From an uncultured Candidatus Rokubacteria bacterium (lineage in GTDB: Bacteria; Methylomirabilota; Methylomirabilia; Rokubacteriales; DASRDR01), in contig CAWDVE010000018.1 of assembly GCA_963805625.1 (NCBI GenBank), positions 1-64,000 on the forward strand: 64,000 bases of DNA, given 5' to 3'. The position numbers and the translations under genes were made by a program. Under the pieces are notes generated by a model. The model had not been told where the DNA came from and did not search any database. It saw nothing but the letters and a program-made list of their open reading frames with translations. Shown piece by piece: positions 37,623-60,378 of this stretch. Within the stretch, counting starts at the first letter, position 1. Every line of letters starts with the position of its first letter.

Positions 37623-40049
37623 ATGACGACGCGGTTGATCGGTGCGCGCATCTCGCGAAACGAGGATCCGCGGCTCCTCCGGGGGCTGGGCTCGTTCGTC
37701 GACGACATCGAGCCGCGCGGGGTGCTTCACGCCGCGTGCCTCCGCTCCCCGCATGCGCACGCGCGGGTCCTCGCGATCGATACCGCCCGGGCCCGCGCGC
37801 TGCCGGGTGTGCACCTGGTCCTGACCGCTGCCGAGCTCGGCGAGCTCAACCAGCCGTCGCCGCTCCTGATTCCGCACCCGGGCCTGTCCCATCCGAGGAC
37901 CCAGCGGCCGCTCGCGGTCGACCAGGTCCGCTACACGGGCGAGCTCGTCGCCTTCGTGGTGGCCGATGACCGCTACGTGGCCGAGGACGCCGCCGGCCTG
38001 ATCGACGTCGCCTACGAGTCCCTGCCGGTGGTGACCGATCTGGAGGCGGCCGGCAATCCCGGAGGACCGCTCGTCCACGCGGACGTGCCAGCGAACCGCG
38101 CGGCGCGCCTCGTTCAGCAGGTGGGAGACCCGGACGCGGCGTTCAGGCGGGCGGCCCACGTTCTGCAGGAGCGGCTCTATATCGAGCGGAGCTGCGGCAG
38201 CCCGATCGAGGCGCGCGGCGTGGTCGCGGAGTACGACGCCCGGACCGGGCAGCTCCGGGTGTGGAGCTCGACGCAGGCGCCGCTGCCCATCAAGAACGGC
38301 CTCGCCCGGATCTTCGGCCTGCCCGAATTCAAGGTCGAGGTCGTCGTGCCGGACACCGGGGGCGGCTTCGGCACAAAGATCATGCTGTTCTACCCCGAGG
38401 AGATCCTGGTCCCGTACGCGGCGATGCGGCTCGGGCGAGCCGTGAAGTGGACCGAGGACCGCCTCGAGCACTTCGTCAGCGCCAGCCACGAGCGCGGGCA
38501 GCTCCACGACGTCGAGGTCGCCTGTGACGCGGCCGGCCGGATCCTCGGACTCCGGGACCGGTTCCGCCACGACGCCGGGGCCTACACGCCGTATGGCATC
38601 GTCATCCCGCTCATCACTTCGACCCAGCTCCCCGGCCAGTACCGGATCCGGCACTACCAGGTCGAGTTCGACGTGCTCTACACGAACAAGGTGATGACGA
38701 CCCCCTACCGCGGCGCCGGGCGCCCCCACGGCGCCTTCGTCATGGAGCGGGTCATCGGCCTCATCGCTCGCGAGCTCGGGCTCGAGCCCGCCGAGGTGCG
38801 CCGCCGAAACCTCATCCAGCCGGACGAGTTCCCGTGGGACGTGGGGCTTACGTTCCAGGACGGCGGACCGACGCGCTACGACAGCGGGAACTACCCCGCG
38901 GGCCTCGAGATGGCGCTCGAGGCGATCGGCGCGCGAGACTTCCGGGCCCGGCAGGCGGCGGCCCGCGCCGAGGGGCGATACCTCGGCCTCGGCGTCGCCT
39001 GCTACGTCGAGGGGACCGGGATCGGGCCCTACGAGGGCGCCCACGTACGGGTCGAGCCGAGCGGGCGGATCTTCGTGGCGACTGGCCTCACGACGCAGGG
39101 CCAAGGCCACCAGACGACCTTCGCTCAGATCGCCGCCGAGGCGCTCGGGTGCTCGCCGGCCGACGTGACGGTGGTGACCGGCGACACGGGGCGATTCAAC
39201 TGGGGCGCGGGAACGTTCGCGAGCCGCGCGCTGGTGACGAGCGGCAACGCGGTGGCGGCGGCGGCCCGCAAGGTCCGCGACAAGGCGCTCCACCTCGCGG
39301 GCGAGCTGCTCGAGGCCTCGCCGGGCGACATCGAGCTGGTCGACGGCGCTGCCCGGGTCAAGGGGGTGCCCGGACGCGAGCTCACGCTCGGAGCCCTGGC
39401 CACGGTGGCCAACCCGATCCGCTACGCCTACGGGAAGGAGGCGGCGGAGTCGGCGCTCCGGCTCGTCAAGCCTCGCCGCGGCGCCGTCCTCCGCGACGAC
39501 GAGGAACCGGGGCTCGAGGCGCGCGGCTACTACGCGCCGCCGCAGGCGACCTTCGCGAGCGGCTGCCACGCGGCGATCGTCGAGGTGGACGTCGAGACCG
39601 GCGAGGTCACGTTCGAGAAGTATGTCGTCCAGCATGACTGCGGGACCATCGTGAACCCGACGATCGTCGAGGGACAGATCCACGGCGGCGTCGCCCAGGG
39701 CATCGGGGGTGCGCTCTACGAGAAGCTCGCGTACGACGAGCACGGGCAGCTTCTTGCCGGGAGCTTCATGGACTTCCTCATGCCCACAGCCGCGGAGATC
39801 CCCGACATCACCGTCGTTCACCTGGAGACGCCGTCCCCGTTGAACCCGCTGGGCGTCAAGGGGGTGGGCGAGGCCGGGGCCATCCCGGTCCCCGCGCTGG
39901 TGGCCGAGGCGGTGGACGACGCGCTCGCTCCCTTCGGCGTACGGGTGCGCGAGATGCCGCTCAACCCGACCCGGATCCGGGAGCTGGTCGAGCAAGCCAC
40001 CGCCGGTGCCGGCGGACGCGCGTCGATCGGCCGGCGCGCTGGACCCTGA
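37623..40049 (+). CDS. Molybdenum hydroxylase large subunit (xanthine dehydrogenase/CoxL-like; candidate uracil/thymine dehydrogenase)
   Basis: EDPRLLRG.G.FVDD, GGGFGTK, PYRGAGRP, QGQGHQT, GQIHGGVAQG, KGVGEAG. Confidence 0.9.
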   Translation: MTTRLIGARISRNEDPRLLRGLGSFVDDIEPRGVLHAACLRSPHAHARVLAIDTARARALPGVHLVLTAAELGELNQPSPLLIPHPGLSHPRTQRPLAVDQVRYTGELVAFVVADDRYVAEDAAGLIDVAYESLPVVTDLEAAGNPGGPLVHADVPANRAARLVQQVGDPDAAFRRAAHVLQERLYIERSCGSPIEARGVVAEYDARTGQLRVWSSTQAPLPIKNGLARIFGLPEFKVEVVVPDTGGGFGTKIMLFYPEEILVPYAAMRLGRAVKWTEDRLEHFVSASHERGQLHDVEVACDAAGRILGLRDRFRHDAGAYTPYGIVIPLITSTQLPGQYRIRHYQVEFDVLYTNKVMTTPYRGAGRPHGAFVMERVIGLIARELGLEPAEVRRRNLIQPDEFPWDVGLTFQDGGPTRYDSGNYPAGLEMALEAIGARDFRARQAAARAEGRYLGLGVACYVEGTGIGPYEGAHVRVEPSGRIFVATGLTTQGQGHQTTFAQIAAEALGCSPADVTVVTGDTGRFNWGAGTFASRALVTSGNAVAAAARKVRDKALHLAGELLEASPGDIELVDGAARVKGVPGRELTLGALATVANPIRYAYGKEAAESALRLVKPRRGAVLRDDEEPGLEARGYYAPPQATFASGCHAAIVEVDVETGEVTFEKYVVQHDCGTIVNPTIVEGQIHGGVAQGIGGALYEKLAYDEHGQLLAGSFMDFLMPTAAEIPDITVVHLETPSPLNPLGVKGVGEAGAIPVPALVAEAVDDALAPFGVRVREMPLNPTRIRELVEQATAGAGGRASIGRRAGP

Positions 40050-41023
40050 TGCAGCCCGTGACGCGGCCACGCCCTGGCGGGAGCGCCCGGCTCCGATCCG
40101 GACTGAGGGCCGTCCGCGTGAGTCGGTGTGTCCGCGATCGGATCGACGCGTGGTGTCGAGCCGTGGTGCTCGGGGTCCAGCGTCGCGCCTGTCATCTCAC
40201 CGTTGATGACGGACCGCTCCTGATTCTCTCGACACCGGACGTACCGCTTGCGCCGAATGCCCTCGCGGTCGACGTGGCGCCCCACGTCACGCTGGGGGAC
40301 GCCGGCTTCCGAATTGGCCAGCTCGTCGCGCTGGGGGCGAGCGCGCCGCCCGACCGTGACGCCGATTGGCTCGTCACCTTCGGGGCGGCGTCGACCTGGG
40401 AGCCGCGCCCCCGCGTCCACCGGGTCGTCCTATGCGACCTGGTCGATCGGTTGCGGGCCGCGCGCGCCACCGTCATCGCCGACGGCGCAGAGGAGTCACT
40501 CCTCCCGCTCCTCTGGGTGTCGGAGTCCGACGTGGCTGGGCTCCGGCCGGGTGTCGTCGAGACGGCGGGTATCGCGGCGCGGCTCCTCTTGGACGCGGCG
40601 ATCCGGCGTGATGCGGCCTCCCTGGCCCGGGCGGCCCGCGGTCTCGCGGGGCTCGGGCCCGGGTTGACCCCATCGGGAGACGATCTCCTCGCCGGTTTCG
40701 CCGCGGCCTGGATCCTGGTCGGTGAAGCCCGCGGTCTCGATCGCGTGGCTCGCGAGCGCGTGACGGAGGCCCTCTTCGCGGGAGCCGAGCGCCGCGCGTC
40801 GGCGCTCGGGCGAGTCTGGCTCGAGCACGCCCTCCGGGGCGAGCTCCTCGAGCCGATGACCCGGTTCGTCGCCGCCTTCCTCGCCGCGGAGCCTCGCGAC
40901 CTCGGCGCGGCCGTGCGCGGCGCGCTCGCGGTTGGATCTTCGTCCGGGACCGACTGGATGGTGGGATTCGTTCTCGGAGCCGTAGCAACCCTCGATCGAG
41001 TGACGCGGAATCAGCCATGGTGA
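40049..41023 (+). CDS. DUF2877/YlbF (AllH)-like protein
   Basis: GLGPGLTPSGDD and VGSSSGTD motifs; precedes FdrA- and YlbE-like genes; start may be GTG 40118. Confidence 0.8.
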   Translation: MQPVTRPRPGGSARLRSGLRAVRVSRCVRDRIDAWCRAVVLGVQRRACHLTVDDGPLLILSTPDVPLAPNALAVDVAPHVTLGDAGFRIGQLVALGASAPPDRDADWLVTFGAASTWEPRPRVHRVVLCDLVDRLRAARATVIADGAEESLLPLLWVSESDVAGLRPGVVETAGIAARLLLDAAIRRDAASLARAARGLAGLGPGLTPSGDDLLAGFAAAWILVGEARGLDRVARERVTEALFAGAERRASALGRVWLEHALRGELLEPMTRFVAAFLAAEPRDLGAAVRGALAVGSSSGTDWMVGFVLGAVATLDRVTRNQPW

Positions 41024-42471
41024 CGCGGGGCAGGGTGCGGTCCGACACCTTCATCGACTCGGTGGCGCTCATGCAGGTCACGGAACGCGTCCGGGCGCTC
41101 CCCGGCGTCAGGGCGGCCGCCCTGGTGATGGCGACGGACCTGAACCGCCGGCTGCTCGACGAGACCGACCTCCTCCCCGCTGAGGCCAAGCGGGCCGGAT
41201 CGGCCGACCTCGTCATCACGGTGCGCGCGGAGACCGCCACCGCGGCGGACGCCGCTCTCGGTCAGGCCGAGGGATTCCTCGCCGCGCACCGGGGCGACCA
41301 GGGCCCGCACCGGAGCGAGCCGCCGCGCTCGATCGTCAGCTCGGCTCGCCGGCTGCCGGGGGCCAACGTCGCCCTGGTCTCGGTTCCCGGAGCCTATGCG
41401 ACGGCCGAGGCCCACCAGGCGCTCTCGGCCGGACTCCACGTGTTCTTGTTCAGCGATGGCGTGACGCTGGCCGACGAGATCGCGCTCAAGAAACGGGCCG
41501 AGACACGCGGGCTGCTCGTCATGGGACCGGAGTGCGGGACGAGTTTCCTGAACGGCGTGGGGCTCGGCTTCGCGAATCGCGTCCGGCAGGGACACGTCGG
41601 GCTGGTCGCGGCGTCCGGGACCGGACTCCAGGAGGTCGCGAGCCTGATCCACCGGCTGGGCGCGGGAGTCTCGCAGGGCATCGGTACCGGTGGGCGAGAC
41701 CTCCACGAAGCCGTGGGCGGGCTCGCCACGCTCCAGGTCCTGTCCTGGCTGGCCCGGGATCCCGAGACACACGTGATCGGACTCGTCTCGAAGGCCCCGT
41801 CGGCTGCCGTGGCCGAGCGGGTGCTGAAGGCCGCCGGCGCGTCCGGCAAGCCCGTGGTGGCGTACCTGCCCGGCTGGCGCGGGGCGACTCCGGCCGGTGT
41901 GCTGAGCGTGGCGACGCTCGAGGCGGCCGCGCTCGGGTGCGTCCGGGCGCTCGGGCGCAAGAGGCCGGGCTTCGACCGGCAGCGCGGGCGACGTCCGGGG
42001 CGCCCCCGCCCGGGCCAGGTGCTCGGCCTCTTCACGGGCGGCACGCTGTGTGACGAGGCGCGGACGATCGTCGGTGCTGCCGCGCGGGAGTTCATCGACT
42101 TCGGCGCCTCGGACTACACAGGGGGTCGGCCGCATCCGATCATCGACCCGAGTCTCCGGAACGCGGCCCTGGCGCGCGCCGGGAGCGATCGAAAGGTGGG
42201 AGTGCTGCTGATAGACGTGATCCTCGGCGACGGCGCCCATCCGGACCCAGCCGGCGCGCTCGCCGCCGCCATCGGCGAGGCGCGGACCCGCGCCCATCGG
42301 GGGCGCCGGACGCTCGAGGTCGTCGCGCACGTGGTCGGGACCGACGAGGATCCCCAGGGGCTCGCGAAGCAGGAAGGGGCGCTCCGGCGCGCGGGTGCCC
42401 GAGTCTGCCCGACGAACCGCCTGGCCGCCGAGCTGGCGCGAGACCTCGTAGGAGGACGCCGTGGCCGCTGA
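41017..42471 (+). CDS. fdrA: FdrA (AllF)-like protein, acyl-CoA synthetase alpha-like fold
   Basis: DSVALM, SVPGAYA, FSDGV, MGPECGT, ASGTGLQEV, GTGGRDL, GGTLCDEA, GRPHPIIDP. Confidence 0.88.
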   Translation: MVTRGRVRSDTFIDSVALMQVTERVRALPGVRAAALVMATDLNRRLLDETDLLPAEAKRAGSADLVITVRAETATAADAALGQAEGFLAAHRGDQGPHRSEPPRSIVSSARRLPGANVALVSVPGAYATAEAHQALSAGLHVFLFSDGVTLADEIALKKRAETRGLLVMGPECGTSFLNGVGLGFANRVRQGHVGLVAASGTGLQEVASLIHRLGAGVSQGIGTGGRDLHEAVGGLATLQVLSWLARDPETHVIGLVSKAPSAAVAERVLKAAGASGKPVVAYLPGWRGATPAGVLSVATLEAAALGCVRALGRKRPGFDRQRGRRPGRPRPGQVLGLFTGGTLCDEARTIVGAAAREFIDFGASDYTGGRPHPIIDPSLRNAALARAGSDRKVGVLLIDVILGDGAHPDPAGALAAAIGEARTRAHRGRRTLEVVAHVVGTDEDPQGLAKQEGALRRAGARVCPTNRLAAELARDLVGGRRGR

Positions 42472-43867
42472 GGGCGGGCTATTCGGCGCGGAGCTCAGGG
42501 TCGTCAGTGCCGGGGTCGATCTCTTCGCCGACGCGCTCGCCGCCCGCGGCGTCGAGGTCAGCCGCGTGGACTGGCGCCCGCCGGTCTCCGGCACGGCATC
42601 GACTCTCTGGCGAGACGAGGTCGACGCCGCCAACCGCGAGGCGCTCCGGCGACTCAGCGCCGCCCAGCCCGTCCTGATCGACGTCCGTCCGGCCCTCGAG
42701 GTCGTGCCCGGGATGACGCCGACGACGCTGCTCCACGCGGGGCCCCCGCTCCCGTGGGCGCGGATGAGCGGGCCGGTGCGGGGCGCCGTCATCGGGGCGC
42801 TTCTCTACGAGCGCCTCGCCGAGACGCCCGAGGAGGCCGAGCAGCTCGCTGCGTCGGGCGCCCTCGCGTTCGATCCCTGCCACCATCACGGCGCGGTCGG
42901 GCCGATGGCCGGGATCACGACGGCGCGCATGCCGGTCCTCGTGGTCGAGAACCGGACCAACGGCAATCGGAGCTACGCCACCCTGAACGAGGGGCTCGGC
43001 AAGGCGCTTCGCTACGGCGCCTTCGCGCCCGACGTCATCGAGCGGCTCCGGTGGTTCGAGGCGATCCTCGGACCGGCGCTCAGCGAGGTGCTCCGACGGA
43101 TCGGGGGTGTCGACATCCGGAGCCTGATCGCCCAGGCCGTCCAGATGGGAGACGAGTGCCACAACCGGAACCGGGCCGCCTCCGCGCTCCTCATCAAGAC
43201 GCTGGCGCCTCACGTGGCCGCCCTCGACCTCCCGCCGGCGGAGCGCGAGCGCATCCTCACCTTCGCGGCCGGGAATGACCACTTCTTCCTGAACGTGGGC
43301 ATGGCAGCGTGCAAGGCGGCGCTCGACGCCGCCCACGGCGTCCCCCGGAGCAGCATGGTGACGGTGATGGCGCGCAACGGCACCGAGTTCGGCATCCGCG
43401 TGAGCGGGCTCGGCGACCGGTGGTTCACCGGCCCGTCCGGGACGCCAGTCGGGCTCTACTTCGCGGGGTTCAGCGGGGAGGACGCCAACCCCGACATGGG
43501 CGACAGCGCGATCACCGAGACGGCCGGCCTCGGCGCCTTCGCGATGGCCGGCGCGCCGGCCATCGTCCAGTTCGTGGGCGGAACCCCGGCCGACGCGCTG
43601 GGCTACACTCGGCGCATGTACGAGATCACGCTCGGCGAGAGCGAGGCCTACCGGCTGCCGGCGCTCGACTTCCGGGGGACGCCGACCGGGATCGACGTCA
43701 GGCTCGTGCTCCAGACCGGGATCCTGCCCCAGATCAACACGGGCATCGCACACCGCCGCCCGGGGATCGGTCAGATCGGGGCCGGTCTCGTCAATCCGCC
43801 CCTCGCGTGCTTCGAGGCGGCCGGCCGAGCGCTGGCAGCCGAGCTGGCCCGAACGAGCCAGGCGTGA
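42461..43867 (+). CDS. DUF1116/YlbE (AllG)-like protein
   Basis: VDWRPP, LHAGPP, PCHHHGAVGPMAG, MGDECHNRN, ARNGTEFG, DMGDSAITE, INTGIAH. Confidence 0.88.
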   Translation: MAAEGGLFGAELRVVSAGVDLFADALAARGVEVSRVDWRPPVSGTASTLWRDEVDAANREALRRLSAAQPVLIDVRPALEVVPGMTPTTLLHAGPPLPWARMSGPVRGAVIGALLYERLAETPEEAEQLAASGALAFDPCHHHGAVGPMAGITTARMPVLVVENRTNGNRSYATLNEGLGKALRYGAFAPDVIERLRWFEAILGPALSEVLRRIGGVDIRSLIAQAVQMGDECHNRNRAASALLIKTLAPHVAALDLPPAERERILTFAAGNDHFFLNVGMAACKAALDAAHGVPRSSMVTVMARNGTEFGIRVSGLGDRWFTGPSGTPVGLYFAGFSGEDANPDMGDSAITETAGLGAFAMAGAPAIVQFVGGTPADALGYTRRMYEITLGESEAYRLPALDFRGTPTGIDVRLVLQTGILPQINTGIAHRRPGIGQIGAGLVNPPLACFEAAGRALAAELARTSQA

Positions 43868-43878
43868 GGGCAGGGGGC

Positions 43879-44703
43879 GTGAGCGCGCTCCGCGCCGCGG
43901 AGGGGGCCGCGCCGGCTCCCACACTGCCGGTCCGGCGGTGGCTCTCGTCATTCGCGGTGGCGGGGGCCCTCGTCCTTGCGTGGGAGGGGAGCAAGGCGCT
44001 GTTCGCGATTCCGCGGTACAAGCTTCCCCACGTCCACGAGATCCTCGGCGAGTTCGTCCGGGAGGGCGCGGACGGCACGCCCTGGCTCCTGATCATGGCC
44101 CACAACGCCGGGTACACGGCGCTCGAGAGCTTCGCCGGCTTCGCGCTCGGAGCCAGCACGGGCCTCGTCTTGGCCGTCCTCTTCGCGCGCTTCCGGCTGC
44201 TCGAGCGGGGCCTCTTGCCCTACGTGATGGTGTCCCAGACGGTGCCGATCCTCGCCGTCGCGCCGATGGTGGTCGTCTGGCTCGGCACCTCGTGGGTATC
44301 CAAGGCGGTGATCGCGGCGTACCTGACCTTCTTCCCGGTGACGGTCAACATGCTGCGGGGCCTCCGGGCGGTCGACCCGGACGCCCTCGCCCTCATGCGG
44401 GCGCTCGCCGCGACGCCGCGTCAGGTATTCCTGAAGCTCCGCTTCCCGGCCGCGCTTCCCTATCTCTTCACCGCGCTGCGGATCTCGGCGACCGCGAGCG
44501 TCGTCGGCGCGATCATCGGCGAGCTCCCGGTCGGGAGCCGGTTCGGGATGGGTGTGGTGATCATCAACGCGGCCCAGTACTACAACTGGCAGCCCGCGAA
44601 CCTCTGGGCGGCCATCCTGGTGTCGGCGCTCCTCGGGATCGCGTTCTACCACGCGGTCGCCGCCGTCGAGCGGCGCTGCATCCGCTGGCAGCCGACGACG
44701 TAG
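43879..44703 (+). CDS. NitT/TauT-family ABC permease
   Basis: QTVPILAVAP, FFPVTVN, KLRFPAALP, VGAIIGE. Confidence 0.88.
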   Translation: MSALRAAEGAAPAPTLPVRRWLSSFAVAGALVLAWEGSKALFAIPRYKLPHVHEILGEFVREGADGTPWLLIMAHNAGYTALESFAGFALGASTGLVLAVLFARFRLLERGLLPYVMVSQTVPILAVAPMVVVWLGTSWVSKAVIAAYLTFFPVTVNMLRGLRAVDPDALALMRALAATPRQVFLKLRFPAALPYLFTALRISATASVVGAIIGELPVGSRFGMGVVIINAAQYYNWQPANLWAAILVSALLGIAFYHAVAAVERRCIRWQPTT

Positions 44704-44706: not shown

Positions 44707-45753
44707 GTGCCACACAGGACCCTGGCAGCGATTGTCCCGTTTACCAGGACCCGAGAGGCGAACGTCACGCGCTCCCGGTCGGCCGTTCTCCTCGCCCTGA
44801 CCCTGAGCCTCCTCGCTGCTCCGGTCGCCGCCCAGGTGCCGCAGTCCGGGCGAGTATCGCGGATCGGCCTTCTGTTCACGGGCTCGCCTCCACCCGAGTC
44901 CAATCGTGCGGTCGAGGCGTTACGACGCGGCCTCCGCGACCTCGGCTACGTGGAGGGTCGGACCATCCAGCTCGAGTACCGGTGGGCGCCGGAAGGTGGA
45001 TCCGATCAACTCCCTGGTCTGGCGGCTGAGTTGGTCCGTCTCGGGGTGGATGTCATCGTCGCCCAGACGAACGTCCACACCAGGGCGGCCAGCCAGGCGA
45101 CGTCGACGATTCCCATCGTGTTCGGCGCGGTCAGCGATCCGGTCGAGAGCGGTCTCGTGGCCGGCCTGGCCCGGCCGGGCGGGAACGTGACAGGGTCGAG
45201 CTTGCTAGCGCCGGAAGTCGTCAGGAAGCTGCTCGAGTTTCTCAAGGAAGCGGTTCCGGACGCCTCCCGGATCGCTGTTCTCGCAGATCCGGAGGGAAGC
45301 GTGCAGAGCCGGAAGGAGGCAGAGGCGGGGGCCCAGGTGCTGGGTCTGCGGCTTCATCGACTGGACGTGCGCGATCCGAGGGAGCTCGATCAGGCATTCC
45401 AGGCGGCCATGGCGGCCCGCGCCCAGGCCGTCATCACGATTCCGAGCTCCTTCTTTGCCCGACACCGCGGGCGCGTGGCGGAGCTCGCCCTGAAGAGCCG
45501 GCTCCCGGCGGTCTCCATCGAGACGGGATTCGCGGAGGCAGGCGGCCTCCTGTCCTATGGCCCGAACATTCCAGACAGCTTCCGGCGGGCTGCCCTCTAC
45601 GTCGACAAGATCCTCAAGGGCGCGAAGCCGGCCGACTTGCCCGTCGAGCAACCCACCAAGTTCGACCTGGTCCTCAACCTGAAGACCGCCAAGGCGCTCG
45701 GCCTGACGATCCCTCCCTCGGTTCTGGTGCGGGCAGATCGGGTGATCGAATGA
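44707..45753 (+). CDS. ABC substrate-binding protein (Tyr/Trp-binding DUF534-like family); start uncertain
   Basis: GLRDLGYVEG, DPVESGLV..LARPGGNVTG, GGLLSYG, YVDKILKGAKPADLPVEQPTKF. Confidence 0.88.
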   Translation: MPHRTLAAIVPFTRTREANVTRSRSAVLLALTLSLLAAPVAAQVPQSGRVSRIGLLFTGSPPPESNRAVEALRRGLRDLGYVEGRTIQLEYRWAPEGGSDQLPGLAAELVRLGVDVIVAQTNVHTRAASQATSTIPIVFGAVSDPVESGLVAGLARPGGNVTGSSLLAPEVVRKLLEFLKEAVPDASRIAVLADPEGSVQSRKEAEAGAQVLGLRLHRLDVRDPRELDQAFQAAMAARAQAVITIPSSFFARHRGRVAELALKSRLPAVSIETGFAEAGGLLSYGPNIPDSFRRAALYVDKILKGAKPADLPVEQPTKFDLVLNLKTAKALGLTIPPSVLVRADRVIE

Positions 45754-45791: not shown

Positions 45792-46595
45792 GTGGGGATC
45801 ATCGAGCTCGAGGGCGTGAGCAAGACGTATCCGAGCCCGGCTGGCGAGATGGAGGCGCTCCACGACGTCTCGTTCGCCGTCGAGCGCGGGGAGCTCGTCT
45901 CGCTGATCGGCCCGTCGGGATGCGGGAAGTCCACCCTCCTCCGGATCGTCGGCGACCTCGTCCCGCCATCGGGAGGCGCGGTCACCGTGAACGGGAAGCA
46001 CCCGGGGGCGGCGCGCCTCGACCGGGACTACGGTATCGTGTTCCAGGCGCCCGTGCTCTACGACTGGCGTACGGTGGAGGCCAACGTCGGCCTGCCGCTC
46101 GAGGTGATCGGCTGGCCGCGGCCGGAGCGCGACCAGCGGGTGCGGGCGCTCCTGCGGCTGGTCGGGCTCGACGCCTTCCGCCGCCATTATCCCTGGCAGC
46201 TCTCGGGCGGGATGCAGCAACGGGTCGCCATCGCGCGGGCGCTTGCGACCAATCCGGCGATCCTGCTCATGGACGAGCCGTTCGGAGCGCTCGACGAGAT
46301 GACGCGGGAGCGCCTGAACCTGGAGTTCCTGAACATCTGCCGCGAGACCGGCGCCACCGTGCTCTTCGTCACCCACAGCATCGCGGAGGCGGTCTTCCTC
46401 TCGACCCGCGTCGTCGTGCTAACCGCCCGACCCGGCCGCATCGAGCGGGTGGTGGACGTGGACCTTCCACAGCCCCGTAGCGAGAAGACGCGCGCTCTGC
46501 CGCGCTTCTTCGAGCTGGTCACTTTCGTGCGGGAGCACCTGGTCGAGGACCCCGCCCTGGCCGCCGCGGGGAGCCCCGCCAGCGAGGTTAGGTAG
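45792..46595 (+). CDS. NitT/TauT ABC ATPase
   Basis: GPSGCGKST, LSGGMQQR, MDEPFGALD, THSIAEAVFL. Confidence 0.92.
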   Translation: MGIIELEGVSKTYPSPAGEMEALHDVSFAVERGELVSLIGPSGCGKSTLLRIVGDLVPPSGGAVTVNGKHPGAARLDRDYGIVFQAPVLYDWRTVEANVGLPLEVIGWPRPERDQRVRALLRLVGLDAFRRHYPWQLSGGMQQRVAIARALATNPAILLMDEPFGALDEMTRERLNLEFLNICRETGATVLFVTHSIAEAVFLSTRVVVLTARPGRIERVVDVDLPQPRSEKTRALPRFFELVTFVREHLVEDPALAAAGSPASEVR

Positions 46596-49744: not shown

Positions 49745-50071
49745 ATGATCTCGAGGCACTGGAAGGGCATCGCCAGGCCGGGGCAGGCAGAGCGGTACGT
49801 CGACCACCTCCGGCGCGACGTCTTCCCGAAGCTCGTGGCGATTCCCGGCTTCGTCCGCACCACGATCCTGAGGCGAGAGGTCGCCGACGGCACCGAGTTC
49901 CAGATCGTCACGGTGTGGCGCTCGCTGAGCGCCGTCGAGACGTTTGCCGGGAAGGATCCGGACGCCGCCGTCGTTCCGCCCATCGTCCAGGCGATGATGG
50001 CGGCCTATGATCGTGACGTCGTGCGCCACGAGCTGGCCGACAGCTACGAGCCCGTGGCACAGCCCCAGTGA
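49745..50071 (+). CDS. ABM-like dimeric alpha-beta barrel protein
   Basis: MISRHWKG, EFQIVTVW.SL, FAGKDPDAAVVP pattern. Confidence 0.7.
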   Translation: MISRHWKGIARPGQAERYVDHLRRDVFPKLVAIPGFVRTTILRREVADGTEFQIVTVWRSLSAVETFAGKDPDAAVVPPIVQAMMAAYDRDVVRHELADSYEPVAQPQ

Positions 50072-50883: not shown

Positions 50884-50911
50884 AGCCATCAACGAAAAGG
50901 AGGACACGACG

Positions 50912-51925: not shown

Positions 51926-51941
51926 GCCCGAGCCGGGGGAG

Positions 51942-52775
51942 ATGGCCCCGCCGCTCGTCCGGCTCGAGCGGGTCTCGAAGCGCTACGAAGTCGCCCGGCG
52001 GCCGGGGCCCGCCGGCGTCGAGGAGGAGACCGCACTGCAGGCGGTCACCGACTTCACGCTCGACGTGGGGGCGGGGGAGTTCGTCTCCATCATCGGTCCC
52101 TCCGGGTGCGGCAAGACCACGGTGCTGTTCCTCCTGGCCGGCCTGCGACCGCCCAGCGCCGGCCACGTGGAGGTCTGCGGCCAGCCCGCCGCCAATGCGA
52201 TGCGGAGCGGGCTGGCAAGCGTCATCTTCCAGCAGCCCGTCCTCTTCGAGTGGCTGACGGTGGAGGACAACGTCCTCCTCCCGCTGCGGATGCGGGACCC
52301 GCGCTGGTGGGCGTGGCCGCTTCGCCGGCGGGGCTACGCGGCGCGCGCCCATGAGGCCCTGGCCACGGTCGAGCTCGACGCGTTCGCCCACTACCGGCCA
52401 GACGCCCTGTCCGGGGGCATGCAGCAGCGCGTGGCGATCGCGCGGGCGCTGACGCTGGCGCCCCGGGTCCTGCTGCTCGACGAGCCCTTCGGGGCGCTGG
52501 ACGAGCTCACGCGCGATCGGATGAACCAAGAGCTGCTCCGGCTCTGGGAGGCACGTGGTCTCAGCATTGTCTTCGTGACGCACTCGATCGAGGAGGCGGT
52601 CTTCCTCTCCGACCGCGTCGTCGTGATGGGCCGGGCGCGCTCGGAAAAGACCGGCTCCAGCATCGTGCGGATCGTCGACGTGGACTTGCCCCGGCCGCGT
52701 CGCCTGGCGGTGAAGGAGGAGGTCGCCTTCTTCCAGAAGGTGCGCGAGGGGCGCGAGGCGCTCCGGGAGGCGTAG
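51942..52775 (+). CDS. NitT/TauT ABC ATPase
   Basis: GPSGCGKT, LSGGMQQR, LDEPFGALD. Confidence 0.92.
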   Translation: MAPPLVRLERVSKRYEVARRPGPAGVEEETALQAVTDFTLDVGAGEFVSIIGPSGCGKTTVLFLLAGLRPPSAGHVEVCGQPAANAMRSGLASVIFQQPVLFEWLTVEDNVLLPLRMRDPRWWAWPLRRRGYAARAHEALATVELDAFAHYRPDALSGGMQQRVAIARALTLAPRVLLLDEPFGALDELTRDRMNQELLRLWEARGLSIVFVTHSIEEAVFLSDRVVVMGRARSEKTGSSIVRIVDVDLPRPRRLAVKEEVAFFQKVREGREALREA

Positions 52776-53016: not shown

Positions 53017-53569
53017 ATGACACCCCTCAGATTGGCTGGTCTTGTGATCGCGACTCTGCTCGCGGTGCCTCATGCCGGTCGACGACGAACGCAAGAAGGT
53101 CTTGGACTTCGACAGCCCTTATCATCTCCTGCAAAGCACCTATTTGGTGGCGCCCGGCTCGCCCATCCACACGCTTGCGGATGCCAACCGCGCCGGCGTG
53201 CGCATCTTCGGTGCGCAGGATACGGCGACCTTCCGCGCCTCCAACCGCGCCTCGCCCAACGCCACCCATACCGCGGTTGCCGGGCCCGTCAACGCGATCG
53301 AAACGATGCTGGCGGGCAAGGCCGATGCGATCGCGCTCGGGCGCGCATCGCTCGGCGGCATCGCCGCCAAGATTCCGGGCTCGCGCATCCTCGAGGGCGG
53401 CTTTCTCAATTCCACGACCGCCATCGCCGTGCCGAAAGGAAAGCCCGCGGCGCTGGCTTACGTGAGCGCGTTTGTCGAGGAGGCAAAGGCGTCGGGCCTG
53501 GTGCGCCGCGGCTTGGACAGCGTCGGGCTGACGAACGAGCAGGTTGCGCCGGCGGGCATGAAACCATAG
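53017..53569 (+). pseudogene. Amino-acid ABC substrate-binding protein with internal deletion/frameshift
   Basis: Signal peptide MTPLRLAGLVIATLLAV joined out of frame to C-terminal half MPVDDERKKVLDFDSPY...FVEEAKASGLV. Confidence 0.7.
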
Positions 53570-53747
53570 TTGTTGCGAAGACAGGCCACGCAACATCACC
53601 TCTCCGCGCGCGGATGGCTAAATTCACGGCCCCCGCTTCACGTACTCGCCGAGAACGCATTCAGTCCGCCATCGTGATTCGCCGTCGGCCGACTAAGATC
53701 GTCGTCCAGTGACGGAGCGCCCAGCCTCGAGTGGTGGGACCGGATCG

Positions 53748-56700
53748 ATGCCTGAGGCTCCGGCCCGGCTCCGGGTTGGGATCGACACCGGCGGCACGTT
53801 CACCGACGTCGTCGCCGTGGAAGAGGCGACGGGCGAGATCTTCGCGACCAAGACGCCATCCAGGCCCGAGGATCCGTCGCTCGCCGTGCTGGAAGGGCTG
53901 CGGAAGGTCCTGCGGCTCGCCGGGGCGCCGGCCGGCGCGGTGGTGGCGGTCTCGCACGGGACGACGGTCGCGACGAACGCGCTCCTGGAGGAGCGGTTCG
54001 ACGAGCTCGGGCTGGTGACGACCGAGGGGTTCCGGCACGTCCTCGAGATCGCGCGGCAGAGCGTCCCGCAGGGCTACGGCAACTCCTACTTCTGGGTGAA
54101 GCCGGCGCGGATCGTGCCGCTGCACTGCGTGCGCGAGGTCCCGGAGCGCGTGAGCCACCGGGGCGAGGTCCTGCGGGAGTTCGATGAGTCGGCGGCGGCC
54201 GAGGTGGCCGGGTGGTGCCGGCGCCGGGGCATCTCGGCGATCGGCGTGAGCTTTCTCCACGGCTACGCCAACCCGGCGCACGAGCAGCGGATGCGGGCAG
54301 CGCTCGCCCGCGTGCACCCGGAGGCGCACGTCTCGCTCTCCTCCGAGGTGTGGCCGGAGTACCGGGAGTACGAGCGCACCGTAACGACACTGGTCGACGC
54401 CTTCGCCAAGGGCCGTGTGTCCGGCTACGTGGAGCGGATCGGGGCCCGGCTCGCCACGGAGCTCGGGCCCGGCGTGCCCTTCCAGGTGATGAAGTCCAAC
54501 GGCGGCGTGATCTCCGCCCGCGAGGTCGTCAGCCACCCGATCACCACCATCCTGAGCGGACCGGCCGCCGGCGCGCTCGGCGCCGCGTTTCTGGCCGCCG
54601 CCGCCGGCTTCGAGCGCATCCTCACCATGGATGCGGGCGGGACCAGCACCGACGTCTGCCTGGTCGAGGGTGGCGAACCGGGGCTCACCACCGATGGCAC
54701 CGTCGGCCGGTTCCCTGTCAAGGTGCCGATGATCGATCTCGTCACGGTCGGGACGGGCGGCGGCTCGATCGCCTCGCGCGCGCCCGACGGCGGCCTCAAG
54801 GTCGGGCCGGCCAGCGCGGGCGCGGACCCCGGGCCCATGTGCTACGGCCGCGGCGGCACGCGGCCCACCGTCACCGACGCCCAGCTCGTCCTCGGACGCA
54901 TCCCGCAGCATCTCCTCGGCGGCGAGGTGCCGCTGTCGCTCGAGCTCGCCCGGAAGGGCATCGAGGCCCTCGCCGCGGAGCTCAGCCTCACCCCCGAGCG
55001 CACGGCCGAGGGCATCCTCGAGATCGCGGTTTGGAACCAGGCCAACGCCGTCGAGCAGATGAGCGTCAAGCGCGGCCTCGATCCGCGGGATTACACGCTG
55101 GTGGCGTTCGGCGGCTCCGGTCCTCTCCAGGCGGGCCGCCTCGTCGAGCTGCTGGGCCTGCGCGCGGCTCTCATTCCTGCGTCGCCCGGCACGGTCTCCG
55201 CCTTCGGCCTTCTCACCGTCGACCTCAAGAACGACTACGTCCAGACCGCCGTGCAGCGCCACGACCGGCTCGATCTCGCCCTCGTCAACGGCCACCTGGC
55301 GCGGCTCGAGGCGAAGGCGGCCGCGGCACTCGCCCGCGAAGGCGTGCCGGAGTCGGCGCGCCGTCTGGTCCGCCTGGCCGACCTCCGGTACTTCGGCCAG
55401 GCGTGGGAAGTCACCGTGGCGCTGCCGTCCGGTGCGATCGACGCCGCGGGCGCCGCCGAGACCGTGGAGCGCTTCCACGCCGCCCACGAGAAGCGCTACG
55501 GCTACAGCTATCGGGGCGAGCGTCCGGATGCGAGCGGGACCCGACAAGGGGTCGAATGGGTGAACGTGAGGGTCGTGGGTGTCGGCGTGACCGGGCGTCC
55601 GACGCCGCGGGCGCTCGCCGTCGGCGACGGGCACGCCGAGCGCGCCCGGACGGGAACGCGGCGCGTCGGGTTCGCCGGGGGAGACGTCGAGTGCCCCGTG
55701 TACGATCGCGCGCGGCTCCAGCCGGGCGATCGCCTGGCCGGCCCCGCGATCGTGGAGGAGTTCGGCGCCACGACCGTCGTCTGCCCCGGCCAGCGCGTCG
55801 AGGTCGACCGCTTCGGCAACATGATCCTGACCAGCGCGGCCGTGGCCACCCCCGCGCATAGGGCCGATGCTGGGACCGACACGATGCCCGGAGAGGCGCC
55901 GGCCAGCCCCGGGATCCAGCCCGCCCCCCCAGATCCCATCATTCTCCAGATTGTGCAGGGGACGCTGACCTCGGTCGAGGCGGAGGTCGAGGCGGCCATC
56001 GAGCGGACCGCCCGGTCGCCGATGATCCGGGAGGCGCGGGACTTCCGGGCTGGCATCCATGACCGGCACTGCAGGAAACTCACCGGCCGCTCGTACTCGT
56101 CCCTCGTCCAGCCGGTGGTGCGGGACTTCCCGCCGGACACGATGCGGCCCGGCGACGTCTACTTCCACAACGACGTCTACGAGTCGGAGGGCGGGATCGG
56201 CCATCTCCCCGACCTCTGCGTGACGGTGCCGGTCTTCGATCCTCATCAGGGAGACCGAGTGGTCGCGTTCGTTCAGGCGTTCGGGCACCACGACGACATT
56301 GGCGGGGCCGTGCCCGGCTCGATGCCGTCCCACGCCACGAGCGCCCACCAGGAAGGTCTGATGGTCCCGCCGGTCAAGCTCTACGACGCGGGTCGCCCGA
56401 ACCGCGACGTGCTCCGGATCCTCGTGCGGAACTCGCGGCTCCCCGACAGCCTCCGCGGCGACCTCGACAGCGAGGTCTCGGCCTGCCGGCTGGGCGCCGC
56501 GCGGCTCGGCGCGCTCTTTGGCCGGTACGGCGCGGCCCAGGTCGAGGCGTGCTTCGAGGCGATCCTCGCGCGGACGACTGAGACCTTCCGCCGGGAGCTC
56601 CTCGCCCGGATCCCCGATGGCACCCACACGTGGGAGGACTACGCCGAGCACGACGGCGTCGACCCGCCCCGGCTACACGCGCAGCGCATCACCATGACCA

Positions 56701-57803
56701 AGGCCGGCGGCCGCCTGATCCTCGACTTCACGGGCACGAGCCCCCAGGCCCGGGGGCCAATCAACCACGCCGGCAACTACGCCGACGGCGTGTTCCTCAA
56801 GAAGTGGCTCGCCCCGATCCTGCGCAACCTCGCCGACACGCCCGAGCGGATGGCCGAGCTGGACGTCAACGAGGGGGTCGTCCCGCTGATCGAGCTTCGG
56901 TTCCCGCCGCCCGGGACCCTGCTGACGCCGGTCTTCCCGGCTCCGACCAACGCGCGTACGTTCGTCATCCTGCGCCTGCTCGGGGTGCTCGCCGGCGTCC
57001 TTGCCAAGGCCACCGGGGGCCGCATGCCGGCCGACCAGGAGACGATCCGCTACACGGGCTTTCACGGCACGGATCCCGAGGGCGAGTTCTACCTGATGCG
57101 CGAGGTGCTCGGAGGCGGGTCGGGCGGCCGGCACTACGCGGAGGGCTCCGACGTCGTGCACATCGTGCCGGACAGCAAGAACCTGCCCGTCGAGTTCACG
57201 GAGACGCGCTTCCCGCTCCGGATCGAGCGGCTCGCCCTGGCGACGGACTCCGGCGGCGCGGGCCGGCGGCGTGGCGGGCTCGGCTACCTGAAGGAGTTCC
57301 GCACCCTCGCGGACAGCTACTTCCTCTCGGTGGCCGACCGCTCGATCCTCTCCTGTTGGGGACTTGAGGGCGGCCGGGCGGGGCAGCCGTTCCGGGTGAC
57401 GGTCGACCCGGGCGGTAGGGGCGAGCGCGTCCTGCCCGGCCTGGTCGACGATGAGCCGATCCCGGCGGGGACGCTCGTGCGCGTCGAGACAACCGGCGGC
57501 GGCGGCTGGGGCGATCCCCTCGAGCGTGAGCCGTCGCGCGTGATCCTCGACGTGGTCCAGGGCAAGGTCTCGGCGCGGGCGGCCCGGGAGGAGTACGGGG
57601 TGGTCCTGGTCCCGGATCCCCACGGCGAGGTGAGCCACGACGCGGATGCCACCGCCGCGCTACGGGACCGGCTTCGAGAAACACGTGGGCGGCTGCCGTT
57701 CTTCGATCGGGGGCCGGGCTACCGGCGCCTCGCCGGCCGGGACCAGGCTGACGTCGACCTCCTCGATCCGGCGGGGGCTGGGCTGGAGCCCGAGCGGCCG
57801 TGA
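53748..57803 (+). CDS. Fused hydantoinase/5-oxoprolinase (A+B) ATP-dependent cyclic amidohydrolase
   Basis: GIDTGGTFTD, HGTTVATNALLE, SGPAAG, DAGGTSTD, SAGADPGP; B part GHLPD, HHDDIGG, TGGGGWGDP. Confidence 0.93.
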   Translation: MPEAPARLRVGIDTGGTFTDVVAVEEATGEIFATKTPSRPEDPSLAVLEGLRKVLRLAGAPAGAVVAVSHGTTVATNALLEERFDELGLVTTEGFRHVLEIARQSVPQGYGNSYFWVKPARIVPLHCVREVPERVSHRGEVLREFDESAAAEVAGWCRRRGISAIGVSFLHGYANPAHEQRMRAALARVHPEAHVSLSSEVWPEYREYERTVTTLVDAFAKGRVSGYVERIGARLATELGPGVPFQVMKSNGGVISAREVVSHPITTILSGPAAGALGAAFLAAAAGFERILTMDAGGTSTDVCLVEGGEPGLTTDGTVGRFPVKVPMIDLVTVGTGGGSIASRAPDGGLKVGPASAGADPGPMCYGRGGTRPTVTDAQLVLGRIPQHLLGGEVPLSLELARKGIEALAAELSLTPERTAEGILEIAVWNQANAVEQMSVKRGLDPRDYTLVAFGGSGPLQAGRLVELLGLRAALIPASPGTVSAFGLLTVDLKNDYVQTAVQRHDRLDLALVNGHLARLEAKAAAALAREGVPESARRLVRLADLRYFGQAWEVTVALPSGAIDAAGAAETVERFHAAHEKRYGYSYRGERPDASGTRQGVEWVNVRVVGVGVTGRPTPRALAVGDGHAERARTGTRRVGFAGGDVECPVYDRARLQPGDRLAGPAIVEEFGATTVVCPGQRVEVDRFGNMILTSAAVATPAHRADAGTDTMPGEAPASPGIQPAPPDPIILQIVQGTLTSVEAEVEAAIERTARSPMIREARDFRAGIHDRHCRKLTGRSYSSLVQPVVRDFPPDTMRPGDVYFHNDVYESEGGIGHLPDLCVTVPVFDPHQGDRVVAFVQAFGHHDDIGGAVPGSMPSHATSAHQEGLMVPPVKLYDAGRPNRDVLRILVRNSRLPDSLRGDLDSEVSACRLGAARLGALFGRYGAAQVEACFEAILARTTETFRRELLARIPDGTHTWEDYAEHDGVDPPRLHAQRITMTKAGGRLILDFTGTSPQARGPINHAGNYADGVFLKKWLAPILRNLADTPERMAELDVNEGVVPLIELRFPPPGTLLTPVFPAPTNARTFVILRLLGVLAGVLAKATGGRMPADQETIRYTGFHGTDPEGEFYLMREVLGGGSGGRHYAEGSDVVHIVPDSKNLPVEFTETRFPLRIERLALATDSGGAGRRRGGLGYLKEFRTLADSYFLSVADRSILSCWGLEGGRAGQPFRVTVDPGGRGERVLPGLVDDEPIPAGTLVRVETTGGGGWGDPLEREPSRVILDVVQGKVSARAAREEYGVVLVPDPHGEVSHDADATAALRDRLRETRGRLPFFDRGPGYRRLAGRDQADVDLLDPAGAGLEPERP

Positions 57804-58678
57804 AGCCCCCCGTCTTCGAGTACACGGCGGTCAGCTCGATCGACGAGGCCGTTGCCGAGCTCGGGCAGCACGGCGATGCGGCGAAGCTCCTCGCCGGGGG
57901 CCAGAGCCTTGTCCCGCTCCTGAACATGCGACTGGCCACGCCCGAGCGCCTGATCGATCTCAACCGCGTGGCGGAGCTCGTGTACATCACGGTTCGCAGC
58001 GGCGGCCTTGCCGTAGGGGCGATGACGCGGCAGCGGGCCGTGGAGCGCAGCGCGCTCGCCGCCACGCACGTTCCCCTCCTGAGCGACGCGCTCCCTTGGG
58101 TGGGACACTTCCAGATCCGGAACCGCGGGACCCTGGGGGGCAGCCTGAGCCATGCCGACCCGGCCGCCGAGCTGCCGGCGGTGGCTCTCTGCCTAGACGC
58201 CCGCTTCACCGTCCGGGGGCCGGCGGGCGAGCGGACGCTCGTGGCGCAGGAGTTCTTCTTGACCCAGTTGACTACGGCTCTCGCGCCGACCGAGCTGCTC
58301 ACCGAGGCCTGGTTCCCCGCGATCCCGCGGAACTCGGGTTCGGCCTGGCTCGAGCTGGCCCGGCGCCACGGGGATTACGCGCTCGTCGGCGTGGGGGCGG
58401 TCGTGACGATGTCGGGCGACGAAATCGGGGAGGCGCGGATCGCCCTGACCGGGGTGGGGGACCGGCCCATCCGGGCGCGCGAGGCCGAGGCGCAACTCAT
58501 GGGTGAGTCGCCCACGCCGAGCATGCTGGCCGAGGCTGTCGAGGCTGTCCGGCGGGCGATCGACCCGGGGAGCGACATCCACGCGACCGCGGCGTACCGT
58601 CGGCACATCGCCGGCGTGCTCACCGGGCGGGCCATCCGGCTCGCCGTGGCGCGTGCGACGGGAGCCGAGCGTGCCTGA
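57800..58678 (+). CDS. Molybdenum hydroxylase FAD subunit (CoxM-like)
   Basis: [34 protein letters not shown]. Confidence 0.92.
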
Positions 58679-58741: not shown

Positions 58742-59239
58742 ATGACGCCAGCCCCGCTCGAGATGTGCCTGCGGGTCAACGGGCGCGAGCACGCGGAAAC
58801 AGTGCCGCCGCGCCTCTTGCTCTCGGACTTCCTCCGCCACCGCCTGGGCCTGACCGGCACCCACGTCGGGTGCGAGCACGGCGTCTGCGGGGCCTGCACT
58901 GTGCTCCTCGACGGCGAGGCGGTGCGGTCGTGCCTGCTCCTCGCCATCCAGGCCGCCGGCGCCGAGGTGACGACCGTCGAGGGGCTGGCGGAGGCGGACG
59001 GCCCGCTCCATCCGGTCCAGCAGGCCTTCCACGAGATGCACGCGCTCCAGTGCGGGTTCTGCACGCCGGGGTTTCTCCTGTCGGTCGTCGCCTTCCTGCG
59101 GGACGTACCTGCACCCTCGGACGACGAGATCCGGCGCGGGCTGGCGGGCAATCTCTGTCGCTGTACCGGCTACCAGAACATCGTGCGGGCCGTCCGGCGG
59201 GCGAGCGAGCTCCTGGCGGACCCGCCGCCGCCCGCCTGA
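58742..59239 (+). CDS. Molybdenum hydroxylase [2Fe-2S] subunit (CoxS-like)
   Basis: [29 protein letters not shown]. Confidence 0.94.
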
Positions 59240-59283
59240 CGGGCGCGGGCGAACGAGACCCTCTGACCACGGAGAACCAGGCG

Positions 59284-60378
59284 ATGGCAACCGAGGTAGC
59301 CAAGGTCGAGCTCAAGACGGTGCAGGACGCCTCCGGTCTCGAGGCAGCGATCCTCGCGGGGCGGTTCACCGCCGACCAGGTCGTGGCGGTGGTCGGCAAG
59401 ACCGAGGGCAATGGCGGCGTCAACGACTTCACCCGCATCCTCGCCGACCAGGCCTTCCGGCGTGTGCTACAGCAATACGGGCGCCGCAGCGCCGAGGAGG
59501 TCGCGCGGGTGCCCATGGTGTGGTCGGGCGGGTGCGATGGCGTGCTCACCCCGCACGCCACCGTGTTCGCGCGGAACGAGCGGCGGGGACCGGCTGGCCA
59601 GCCGCGGCTCGTCATCGGCGCCGCGATGAGCGCCGAGCTCTTGCCCGAAGACATCGGCCGGCCGGCCATGGTCGAGAAGGTCGCCGAGGGGGTGCGAGCC
59701 GCGATGCGGGACGCCGACCTCCAGGACGCGGCCGACGTGCACTACGTCCAGACGAAGACGCCGCTCCTCACGATCGAGTCCGTGGCCGACGCTCACCGCC
59801 GGGGCCACGGCGTGGCCTGCAAGGTCCACGAATCCATGGATGTCTCGAACGGCACGACCGCGCTCGGCATCGCCGTCGCGCTCGGCGAGATCCCGATGCC
59901 GCGCGCCGAGCAGATTTGCCAGGACTTCGACCTCTATTCATCGGTCGCCTCGTGCTCATCCGGTGTGGAGCTGACGCGGGCCCAGATCGTGCTGATGGGC
60001 AACCGGGCGGGCGCCGGCGGCCGGTACCGGATCGGCCACAGCGTGATGAAGGACGCCCTGGATCTCGACGGGATCTACGAGGCGATCCGGGATGCGGGCC
60101 TGGACCTGCCGGCCCGGCCTCGCGCTGAGGACCTCGGCGGGCGTCTCGTCAACTGCTTCGTGAAGTGCGAGGCGGACCACCGCGGGGTGCTGCGCGGCCG
60201 CCGCCAGATCATGCTCGACGACTCGGACGTACACCACCACCGCCACGCCAAGGCGGCGGTCGGGGCCGTGGTGGCAGCCGCCATCGGCGATCCCGCCGTC
60301 TTCGTCTCGGTCGGGGCCATGCACCAGGGGCCCCACGGCGGCGGGCCGGTCGTCGCGATCGTCAACGTCGGGGAGTGA
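59284..60378 (+). CDS. Barbiturase (AtzD/barbiturase ring-opening amidohydrolase family)
   Basis: [47 protein letters not shown]: barbiturase-type rather than AtzD-type residues (GNGCVND, KCPLL, SRG, SGGxEHQGP). Confidence 0.88.

Follow-up and report, generated by a model that had tools for sequence, protein, structure and literature searches.

Gene content and conservation of the cluster

We analysed a stretch of 64,000 nucleotides (the window) from an uncultured Candidatus Rokubacteria bacterium (assembly GCA_963805625.1, contig CAWDVE010000018.1, forward strand). Positions 37623..60378 hold a cluster of ~23 kb with 18 mapped genes on the + strand plus one binding-protein fragment. An original prediction had read this interval as a complete-looking oxidative pyrimidine catabolic cluster with codA, a molybdenum (Mo) hydroxylase of three subunits (L, M and S), a barbiturase-type gene and ATP-binding cassette (ABC) importers of the NMT1 type; all of these are present, open and on the + strand. 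The cluster is a real, conserved operon whose function is very probably oxidative pyrimidine catabolism, and its modular make-up goes beyond the textbook pathway. Its gene order is L, AllH, AllF, AllG, importer 1 (with a PF04392 insert), CodA, ABM, importer 2, HyuAB, M, S and amidohydrolase:

37623..40049, + strand: Mo-hydroxylase large subunit L, predicted uracil/thymine dehydrogenase L (PYRGAGR loop at residue 361; clade)
40049..41023, + strand: AllH-like (DUF2877) subunit (PF11392, E 3e-20)
41017..42471, + strand: AllF/FdrA-like subunit (PF00549; NCBIfam FdrA 401.7 bits, cut-off 433)
42461..43867, + strand: AllG-like (DUF1116) subunit (PF06545, E 4e-97)
43879..44703, + strand: ABC permease, importer 1 (PF00528)
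44707..45753, + strand: PF04392 solute-binding protein, variable insert (0 to 4 copies here in congeners)
45792..46595, + strand: ABC ATPase, importer 1 (PF00005)
46599..47369, + strand: ABC permease, importer 1 (PF00528)
47417..48433, + strand: NMT1/THI5-type binding protein, importer 1 (PF09084)
48454..49722, + strand: CodA-type deaminase, predicted cytosine and 5-methylcytosine deaminase (Ser309 at the E. coli Asp314 site)
49745..50071, + strand: small ABM-domain protein, variable among congeners (PF03992, E 2e-6)
50068..52775, + strand: ABC importer 2 (permease 50068-50883, NMT1-type binding protein 50912-51925, ATPase 51942-52775)
53072..53569, + strand: SBP_bac_3 binding-protein fragment, in the only long gap
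53709..57803, + strand: fused HyuA-HyuB ATP-dependent lactamase, 1364 aa (ATP motifs, Asp-His-Asp-His metal ligands)
57800..58678, + strand: Mo-hydroxylase flavin adenine dinucleotide (FAD) subunit M (CoxM)
58742..59239, + strand: Mo-hydroxylase 2Fe-2S subunit S (CoxS)
59284..60378, + strand: barbiturase-type Toblerone-fold amidohydrolase (PF09663, E 2e-143; N189 H319 K323 V343 G344)

The three Mo-hydroxylase subunits are thus all encoded here, but L lies ~18 kb away from M and S and there is no L/M/S block. The AllH/AllF/AllG genes (40049-43867) and the HyuAB fusion fill ~8 kb of the interval; the original prediction had left them out of its gene list, and they are the informative part of the cluster.

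The gaps between genes are at most 63 bp, with the sole exception of 933 bp at 52776-53708, which contains the SBP_bac_3 fragment and is missing in at least one congener (L088). Gene order is kept in three congeners over the compared stretches (L086-L091), and the half from coxL to codA is kept in two further congeners (L200, L201). This conservation is not due to chance. The barbiturase, AllH, AllF and full-length AllG are each single-copy in the 7.27-Mb genome. The nearest barbiturases (91-93% identical) come from Rokubacteria/Methylomirabilota records of metagenome-assembled genomes, which bears out the non-actinobacterial, uncultured host proposed earlier. An Rfam scan of the cluster gave no riboswitch or other Rfam element, and the sequence immediately before coxL showed no sigma-70-like site.

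The NMT1-type protein of importer 1 has weak PDB matches only, pyrimidine-precursor binders among them. The PF04392 gene (44707-45753) has 45 tblastn matches genome-wide and resembles a repeatedly inserted gene within an ABC operon.

The barbiturase-type amidohydrolase

The amidohydrolase looks like a barbiturase rather than a cyanurate hydrolase, as had been predicted. Its best PDB match is the barbiturase 5hwe (E 3.7e-145), and the best cyanurate hydrolase follows at 4.9e-96, ~160 bits lower. In the available part of Peat 2013 (PMC3758960), five positions (195, 321, 325, 345 and 346 in AtzD numbering) separate the barbiturases of group VI, with N-H-K-V-S/A, from the cyanurate hydrolases, with R-T-R-G-G. 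The enzyme has N189 H319 K323 V343 G344, four of the five being barbiturase-like, while it shares one of five with the cyanuric acid hydrolase signature (Arg195 Thr321 Arg325 Gly345 Gly346). It is of the same fold family as the cyanuric acid hydrolases AtzD/TrzD and has all seven conserved active-site residues (K39 R51 S81 K158 S225 K294 S342), and differs from them in reading N-H-K-V instead of R-T-R-G. Barbiturase is reported to be unreactive with cyanurate in the part of Cho 2014 (PMC4051656) at hand. Judging from these residues, it is highly likely that the enzyme acts on barbiturate.

The Gly at the fifth position recurs among the barbiturase-type sequences of actinobacteria, in 6 of 17 listed. 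We aligned 108 family members, with four duplicate loci dropped and matches shorter than 300 aa left out: 98 have N-H-K-V, followed by D (74), G (13), A (8) or S (3), and the remaining 10 have R-T-R-A/G-G. Position 346 looks variable in this sample, which is wider than the 68 sequences of PMC3758960.

Two signatures fall outside the groups described in the accessible portion of that paper. NHKVD is the signature of most barbiturase-like enzymes in Pseudomonadota and other Rokubacteria (74/108), and RTRAG is found in Toblerone enzymes of Rokubacteria (L096-L104) that adjoin close orthologues of AllG and mostly also of L.

The Mo hydroxylase and the deaminase

L does not appear to be a form I carbon monoxide (CO) dehydrogenase subunit, in agreement with the original prediction. 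Its active-site loop reads PYRGAGR and not AYXCSFR, the form I motif given in PMC4053681, and it fails the TIGR02416 model (554.7 vs 991). In a quick IQ-TREE analysis of 49 L rows, 36 including the window L form one clade with a support of 100 in the SH-like approximate likelihood ratio test (SH-aLRT). This clade takes in subunits of barbiturase or Toblerone loci of Pseudomonadota, Actinomycetota and Rokubacteria, and outside it are 9 paralogues from the same genome and 4 more distant L subunits of barbiturase loci. A FastTree of 46 L rows sampled otherwise placed 32 in the same clade with support 100; both trees were made by quick methods without bootstrap.

The clade has a nucleobase context in at least one member. 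Genome G246 has a barbiturase with the group VI signature, and its M/S/L genes come after a UraA-like uracil permease, which matches the UraA-like group with E 1e-50 against 4.5e-12 for the uric acid-xanthine permeases; the UraA-like group is annotated for uracil and thymine (PMC6308229, as far as its text is available). Another L of the clade is encoded on a Rhodococcus plasmid in a locus with M/S/L and HyuAB, with no barbiturase within the 42 kb displayed. Based on its loop and clade, the Mo enzyme probably acts on uracil and thymine. This suggests that nucleobases are the substrates of a clade whose genes commonly bear the label "aerobic CO dehydrogenase", with consequences for the reading of soil metagenomes.

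A form I CO dehydrogenase-type subunit (AYRCSFR) is encoded at C12:11453, together with its M and S neighbours (C12:9144-12911).

CodA scores above both NCBIfam cytosine deaminase cut-offs, and its Ser309 aligns with Asp314 of the E. coli enzyme. The 5-methylcytosine deaminase Kpn00632 (PDB 4r7w) has Ser at this site, which governs that specificity according to the available part of PMC6186785. Our CodA is like Kpn00632 in its family and in this Ser, and unlike it in being slightly nearer to E. coli CodA (1k6w) overall (419 vs 411 bits). The Ser is common to the congeners, and three other Rokubacteria bar-L-codA loci have Cys. As this Ser marks 5-methylcytosine deaminases, a feed of thymine into the route is indicated, and thymine is known to have an oxidative route (PMC11898903, consulted in part). 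PreA and RutA were found in 0 of 11 genus genomes searched, with positive controls found and four of the genomes being less than 80% complete.

The AllFGH-like proteins

AllH, AllF/FdrA and AllG are all encoded in the cluster by overlapping genes, as are the subunits of E. coli AllFGH, an enzyme that converts oxalurate into oxamate and carbamoyl phosphate and back (Kim and Kim 2024, PMC11326118, in the part available). The cluster differs from the E. coli AllFGH/AllK system in its order H-F-G, in the lengths of AllF (484 vs 555 aa) and AllG (468 vs 419 aa), in having its carbamate kinase unlinked and degenerate, and in its predicted substrate, ureidomalonate and not oxalurate. Since ureidomalonate is the one-carbon homologue of oxalurate, AllFGH would be expected to give malonamate and carbamoyl phosphate. 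By this analogy we consider it fairly probable that the trio acts on ureidomalonate.

The distribution of AllG partly follows that of the barbiturase. Five of the nine other genus genomes carry this barbiturase, and the same five carry an 89-93% copy of AllG. Among 17 actinobacterial barbiturase stretches, carbamate kinase is found in 13 and AllG in 9. AllFGH also stands beside Toblerone genes of the other type, in Rokubacteria and on plasmids, and in nitrifiers AllFGHK adjoins biuret genes (PMC12625717, as available); the enzyme would thus be a general acyl-ureide enzyme and not pyrimidine-specific. No allantoin genes were seen in the cluster, the only part of the genome examined for them.

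Conjugative plasmids of Citrobacter and Aminobacter (NZ_CP042536.1, NZ_CP062120.1) carry a ring-opening amidohydrolase together with fdrA, DUF1116, DUF2877 and carbamate kinase genes.

The carbamate kinase homologue of this genome is unlinked (C17:312026-312940) and scores 244 against a cut-off of 358. Its motifs are degenerate in 9/9 genus sequences aligned and intact in 17/17 others, and the lysines of these motifs are essential for carbamate kinase. ATP recovery from carbamoyl phosphate is therefore doubtful in the genus, whose only full-length carbamate kinase homologue has lost the conserved motifs. We dropped the idea of AllFGH feeding carbamate kinase for ATP in this genome because the kinase is degenerate.

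The degenerate homologue is kept across the genus (C17:311472-312946 and congeners, L185-L193). The allG ahead of it is full length in 4 genomes without the cluster; in 6 genomes that have the cluster it is either truncated or was not seen.

The HyuAB fusion

HyuAB keeps the ATP motifs and the Asp-His-Asp-His metal site, as described for caprolactamase in the available part of PMC8453981. It is like N-methylhydantoinase (7hk5), caprolactamase CapAB (6yra) and 5-oxoprolinase in its A and B halves, ATP motifs and metal site. Unlike them it belongs to a separate long-stem subfamily, linked to barbiturase and Mo hydroxylase, with its own polar residues Arg1083, Glu1111 and Arg1114 invariant in 85/85 members. 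The subfamily has FastTree support of 100 (36 rows, proteobacterial members thinned to 1/4, the characterised sequences not being among the rows), and its members are 60-93% identical to the window protein, compared with 31-37% for nine paralogues of the same genome. The caprolactamase models are far below cut-off, and the nearest solved relative, N-methylhydantoinase 7hk5, is distant (E 7e-68 for the B half).

HyuAB is the steadiest partner of the barbiturase (all counts refer to the barbiturase-linked subfamily and not to the paralogues). It is present at 52 of the 80 closest barbiturase loci, lying immediately upstream of the barbiturase in 43, and at 31 of the 45 loci with full flanks. In Actinomycetota it is found in 16/17 barbiturase-type genomes, setting aside one 89% match on a 1.7-kb contig, compared with 28/401 overall. 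Among 251 Rhizobiales genomes it is found in 2/2 of the barbiturase type, one of which was the chosen centre of the sample, and in 0/34 with only the other Toblerone type.

The actinobacterial clusters have HyuAB alongside barbiturase, AllFG, carbamate kinase and amidase. In these full clusters every step of uracil breakdown is already covered by an enzyme, which implies a parallel substrate for HyuAB. Uracil/thymine dehydrogenase oxidises thymine, and barbiturase is narrow in substrate; to our knowledge it fails on 5-methylbarbiturate, and we know of no enzyme assigned to the opening of this ring. Given these specificities of the dehydrogenase and the barbiturase, 5-methylbarbiturate is the obvious other substrate. 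That HyuAB opens the ring of 5-methylbarbiturate (or of barbiturate) is a possibility to which we give somewhat less than an even chance.

HyuAB was also found without any Toblerone gene, in 12 Actinomycetota and 4 Rhizobiales genomes; the 12 and the 28/401 above include G541, which is flagged as unpublished and enters no other statement made here. A search for the Toblerone family gave none in 7 genomes with HyuAB and without barbiturase, with positive controls found. Where the flank is long enough, HyuAB in the barbiturase-less genomes mostly lies beside M/S/L of the same clade, and the near-single-contig G421 and G590 have HyuAB and M/S/L with no Toblerone gene found. These clusters might be taken as proof of ring opening by HyuAB, an argument weakened by their PF04199 cyclase. 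This cyclase is carried by five barbiturase-less actinobacterial clusters (L147, L150, L151, L155, L159) of M/S/L-HyuAB-AllFG layout, and by none of the mapped stretches that contain a barbiturase. It could be the ring opener instead of HyuAB, and is a candidate non-homologous barbiturase.

We also dropped the notion of M/S/L and HyuAB as an invariant pair: G735 and G146 have HyuAB and no clear member of the L clade, and four bar-L loci lack HyuB. In G735, a genome with a 6.0-Mb contig, barbiturase is cleanly absent from a lysR-hyuA-hyuB-ABC-amidase operon (G735:C1:3917000-3927000, L165), and no L-clade subunit was found in this genome either.

Proposed pathway

The oxidative pyrimidine pathway of Rhodococcus erythropolis consists of uracil/thymine dehydrogenase, barbiturase and ureidomalonase, and is described as rare in the available part of PMC3758960. 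The cluster resembles it in the barbiturase-type enzyme with four of the five residues, in a three-subunit Mo hydroxylase of the barbiturase-linked clade and in nucleobase-type import. It differs in having no ureidomalonase candidate, in adding AllHFG, fused HyuAB and a Ser-type CodA, in its likely Rokubacteria host and in the distance of L from M and S.

We propose the following route, in which gene content, families, signature residues, clades and co-occurrence are observed and the substrates are inferred from them. The ABC importers would bring in pyrimidine bases. CodA would convert cytosine to uracil and 5-methylcytosine to thymine, which the Mo enzyme is predicted to oxidise to barbiturate and 5-methylbarbiturate, respectively. 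The barbiturase would turn barbiturate into ureidomalonate, and HyuAB could open the ring of 5-methylbarbiturate at the expense of ATP. The AllFGH-like trio would then convert the ring-opened ureide and phosphate to (methyl)malonamate and carbamoyl phosphate, the latter probably without ATP yield in this genus. The amide and coenzyme A (CoA) steps would have to be supplied by unlinked genes. AllFGH and HyuAB are thus predicted to perform the steps left open by the textbook pathway.

The cluster is not complete in the classical sense, contrary to its first description, which named no step past ureidomalonate. It contains no ureidomalonase candidate, amidase, CoA ligase or carbamate kinase. We take the ureidomalonase family to be the Asp/Glu racemase family, and no gene of that family lies inside the cluster; two PF01177 genes are found elsewhere in the genome. 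Queries with the Asp/Glu racemases of this genome matched 1 of the 80 barbiturase loci, in what is an insensitive test. An unlinked amidase at C10:902435-903799 branches next to barbiturase-linked amidases of Pseudomonadota and is a candidate malonamidase.

Confidence in this scheme differs between its parts. There is good reason to believe that the cluster as a whole serves pyrimidine catabolism, and the full assignment of steps from import to AllFGH is slightly better than an even bet. It is doubtful, though worth stating, that both novel parts hold together, i.e. that HyuAB is the missing opener of 5-methylbarbiturate in the thymine branch, able to stand in for barbiturase, and that the AllFGH-like enzymes are general acyl-ureide carbamoyltransferases replacing ureidomalonase. 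The entry steps add one more member to a known route, and the AllFGH and HyuAB steps are undescribed in the literature searched. That search, over mostly open-access texts without supplements, gave no paper linking barbiturase to AllFGH or HyuAB. If both novel parts hold, the three-enzyme textbook pathway is the minor form of a modular route across at least three phyla. The cluster itself provides named candidates for the opening of 5-methylbarbiturate and for a non-hydrolytic exit from ureidomalonate, and a specific nitrogen-scavenging trait for Rokubacteria.

Several observations weigh against this scheme, beside the degenerate carbamate kinase, the PF04199 cyclase, the HyuAB genomes lacking the L clade and the AllFGH genes next to other Toblerone types described above. 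The uracil dehydrogenase of the original prediction stands as far as L falls in the barbiturase-linked clade, but the assignment is indirect: no L homologue named uracil/thymine dehydrogenase was found, so orthology with the characterised enzyme is inferred, and the 120 listed matches of an actinobacterial L bear only the names of CO or xanthine dehydrogenases. AllFG is present in just 4 of the 80 closest barbiturase loci and in 2 of the 45 with full flanks, 10-kb flanks being too short to show AllFG in the five closest loci. AllG homologues are widespread in the order (118 of 145 genomes), for the most part in genomes that have no barbiturase. HyuB is missing in 14 of 24 barbiturase-type Rokubacteria genomes (13 counting a contig-edge fragment in G133), and among 18 carriers of HyuB, 8 have the other Toblerone type alone. 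The co-occurrence counts are not independent, since the 80 loci include many close kin and kin are over-represented in all counts. Malonate decarboxylase was not found in the genome, nor was a malonyl-CoA synthetase (MatB) above cut-off.

An alternative with the same entry steps has HyuAB acting after the barbiturase in place of ureidomalonase, hydrolysing ureidomalonate to malonate and urea or to malonamate and carbamate, or hydrolysing malonamate, with AllFGH ancillary or serving another ureide. It fits the commonest layout of the 80 loci, which is hyuA-hyuB-bar-ABC-amidase, and the genome encodes a urease alpha homologue (628 bits, cut-off 680); the degenerate carbamate kinase agrees with it too, and the PF04199 cyclase could replace barbiturase where that is missing. 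However, the actinobacterial clusters have HyuAB in addition to AllFG, carbamate kinase and amidase, the characterised hydrolases of its family open cyclic amides (PMC8453981, in the part available), and four Rokubacteria loci have the barbiturase adjoining L and lack this HyuB. We regard this alternative as unlikely. It is less probable still that L, AllFGH and HyuAB are a core for a triazine or purine-derived ring, to which the barbiturase was added later; examples would be 5-azauracil to cyanurate to carboxybiuret, or oxalurate from allantoin. The nearest orthologues of L, AllF, AllG and HyuB outside the genus (~55-85%) often adjoin a cyanurate-hydrolase-type gene (RTRAG in 9 sequences, whose best PDB match is a cyanuric acid hydrolase), which makes the substrate of the cluster less certain. 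The amidohydrolase also passes the NCBIfam cut-off for cyanuric acid amidohydrolase (AtzD; 454.8 vs 360), and the biuret and plasmid contexts of AllFGHK point the same way. On the other side, its N-H-K-V signature and its far closer match to the solved barbiturase speak for barbiturate, members of the L clade in other phyla are associated with barbiturase and a uracil-type permease, and none of the 34 Rhizobiales genomes that have the other Toblerone type alone carries this HyuB.

Some CodA enzymes deaminate creatinine, and CodA and HyuAB might thus form a route from creatinine through N-methylhydantoin to N-carbamoylsarcosine that shares the operon. The nearest solved relative of HyuAB being an N-methylhydantoinase agrees with this, but the match is distant, the subfamily travels with M/S/L and barbiturase, and CodA homologues occur in just 16 of the 80 loci; we think such a route very improbable. 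The database labels, by which the Mo enzyme is an aerobic CO dehydrogenase, are in our view almost certainly misleading. L passes NCBIfam NF040766, "aerobic carbon-monoxide dehydrogenase large subunit" (1072.9 vs 950), and its relatives bear that name, whereas the PYRGAGR loop, the failed TIGR02416 model, the separate AYRCSFR subunit and a context of N-heterocycle catabolism in three phyla all disagree. We therefore retain oxidative pyrimidine catabolism as the preferred reading of the cluster.

Neighbouring genes and other observations

At 4 of the 80 loci (L016, L038, L046, L049) the barbiturase operon is closely preceded by a PRK07198 GTP-cyclohydrolase-II-like gene and a neighbour of it, presumably URC1 and URC4 of the URC pathway for uracil.

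The region 5' of the cluster (29531-35735) contains an RpoD-like open reading frame (ORF), recognised from its translation, a tRNA (31672-31744), an RNase P RNA (32571-32966), an FAD oxidase on the minus strand (33089-34504) and an AraC/DJ-1 regulator (34659-35735). The GC content falls to 0.64 at 34-36 kb, ahead of the cluster. On the 3' side a peptide-type ABC system occupies 60726-63610, and its binding-protein ORF has a partial match to the SBP_bac_5 profile and may be truncated.

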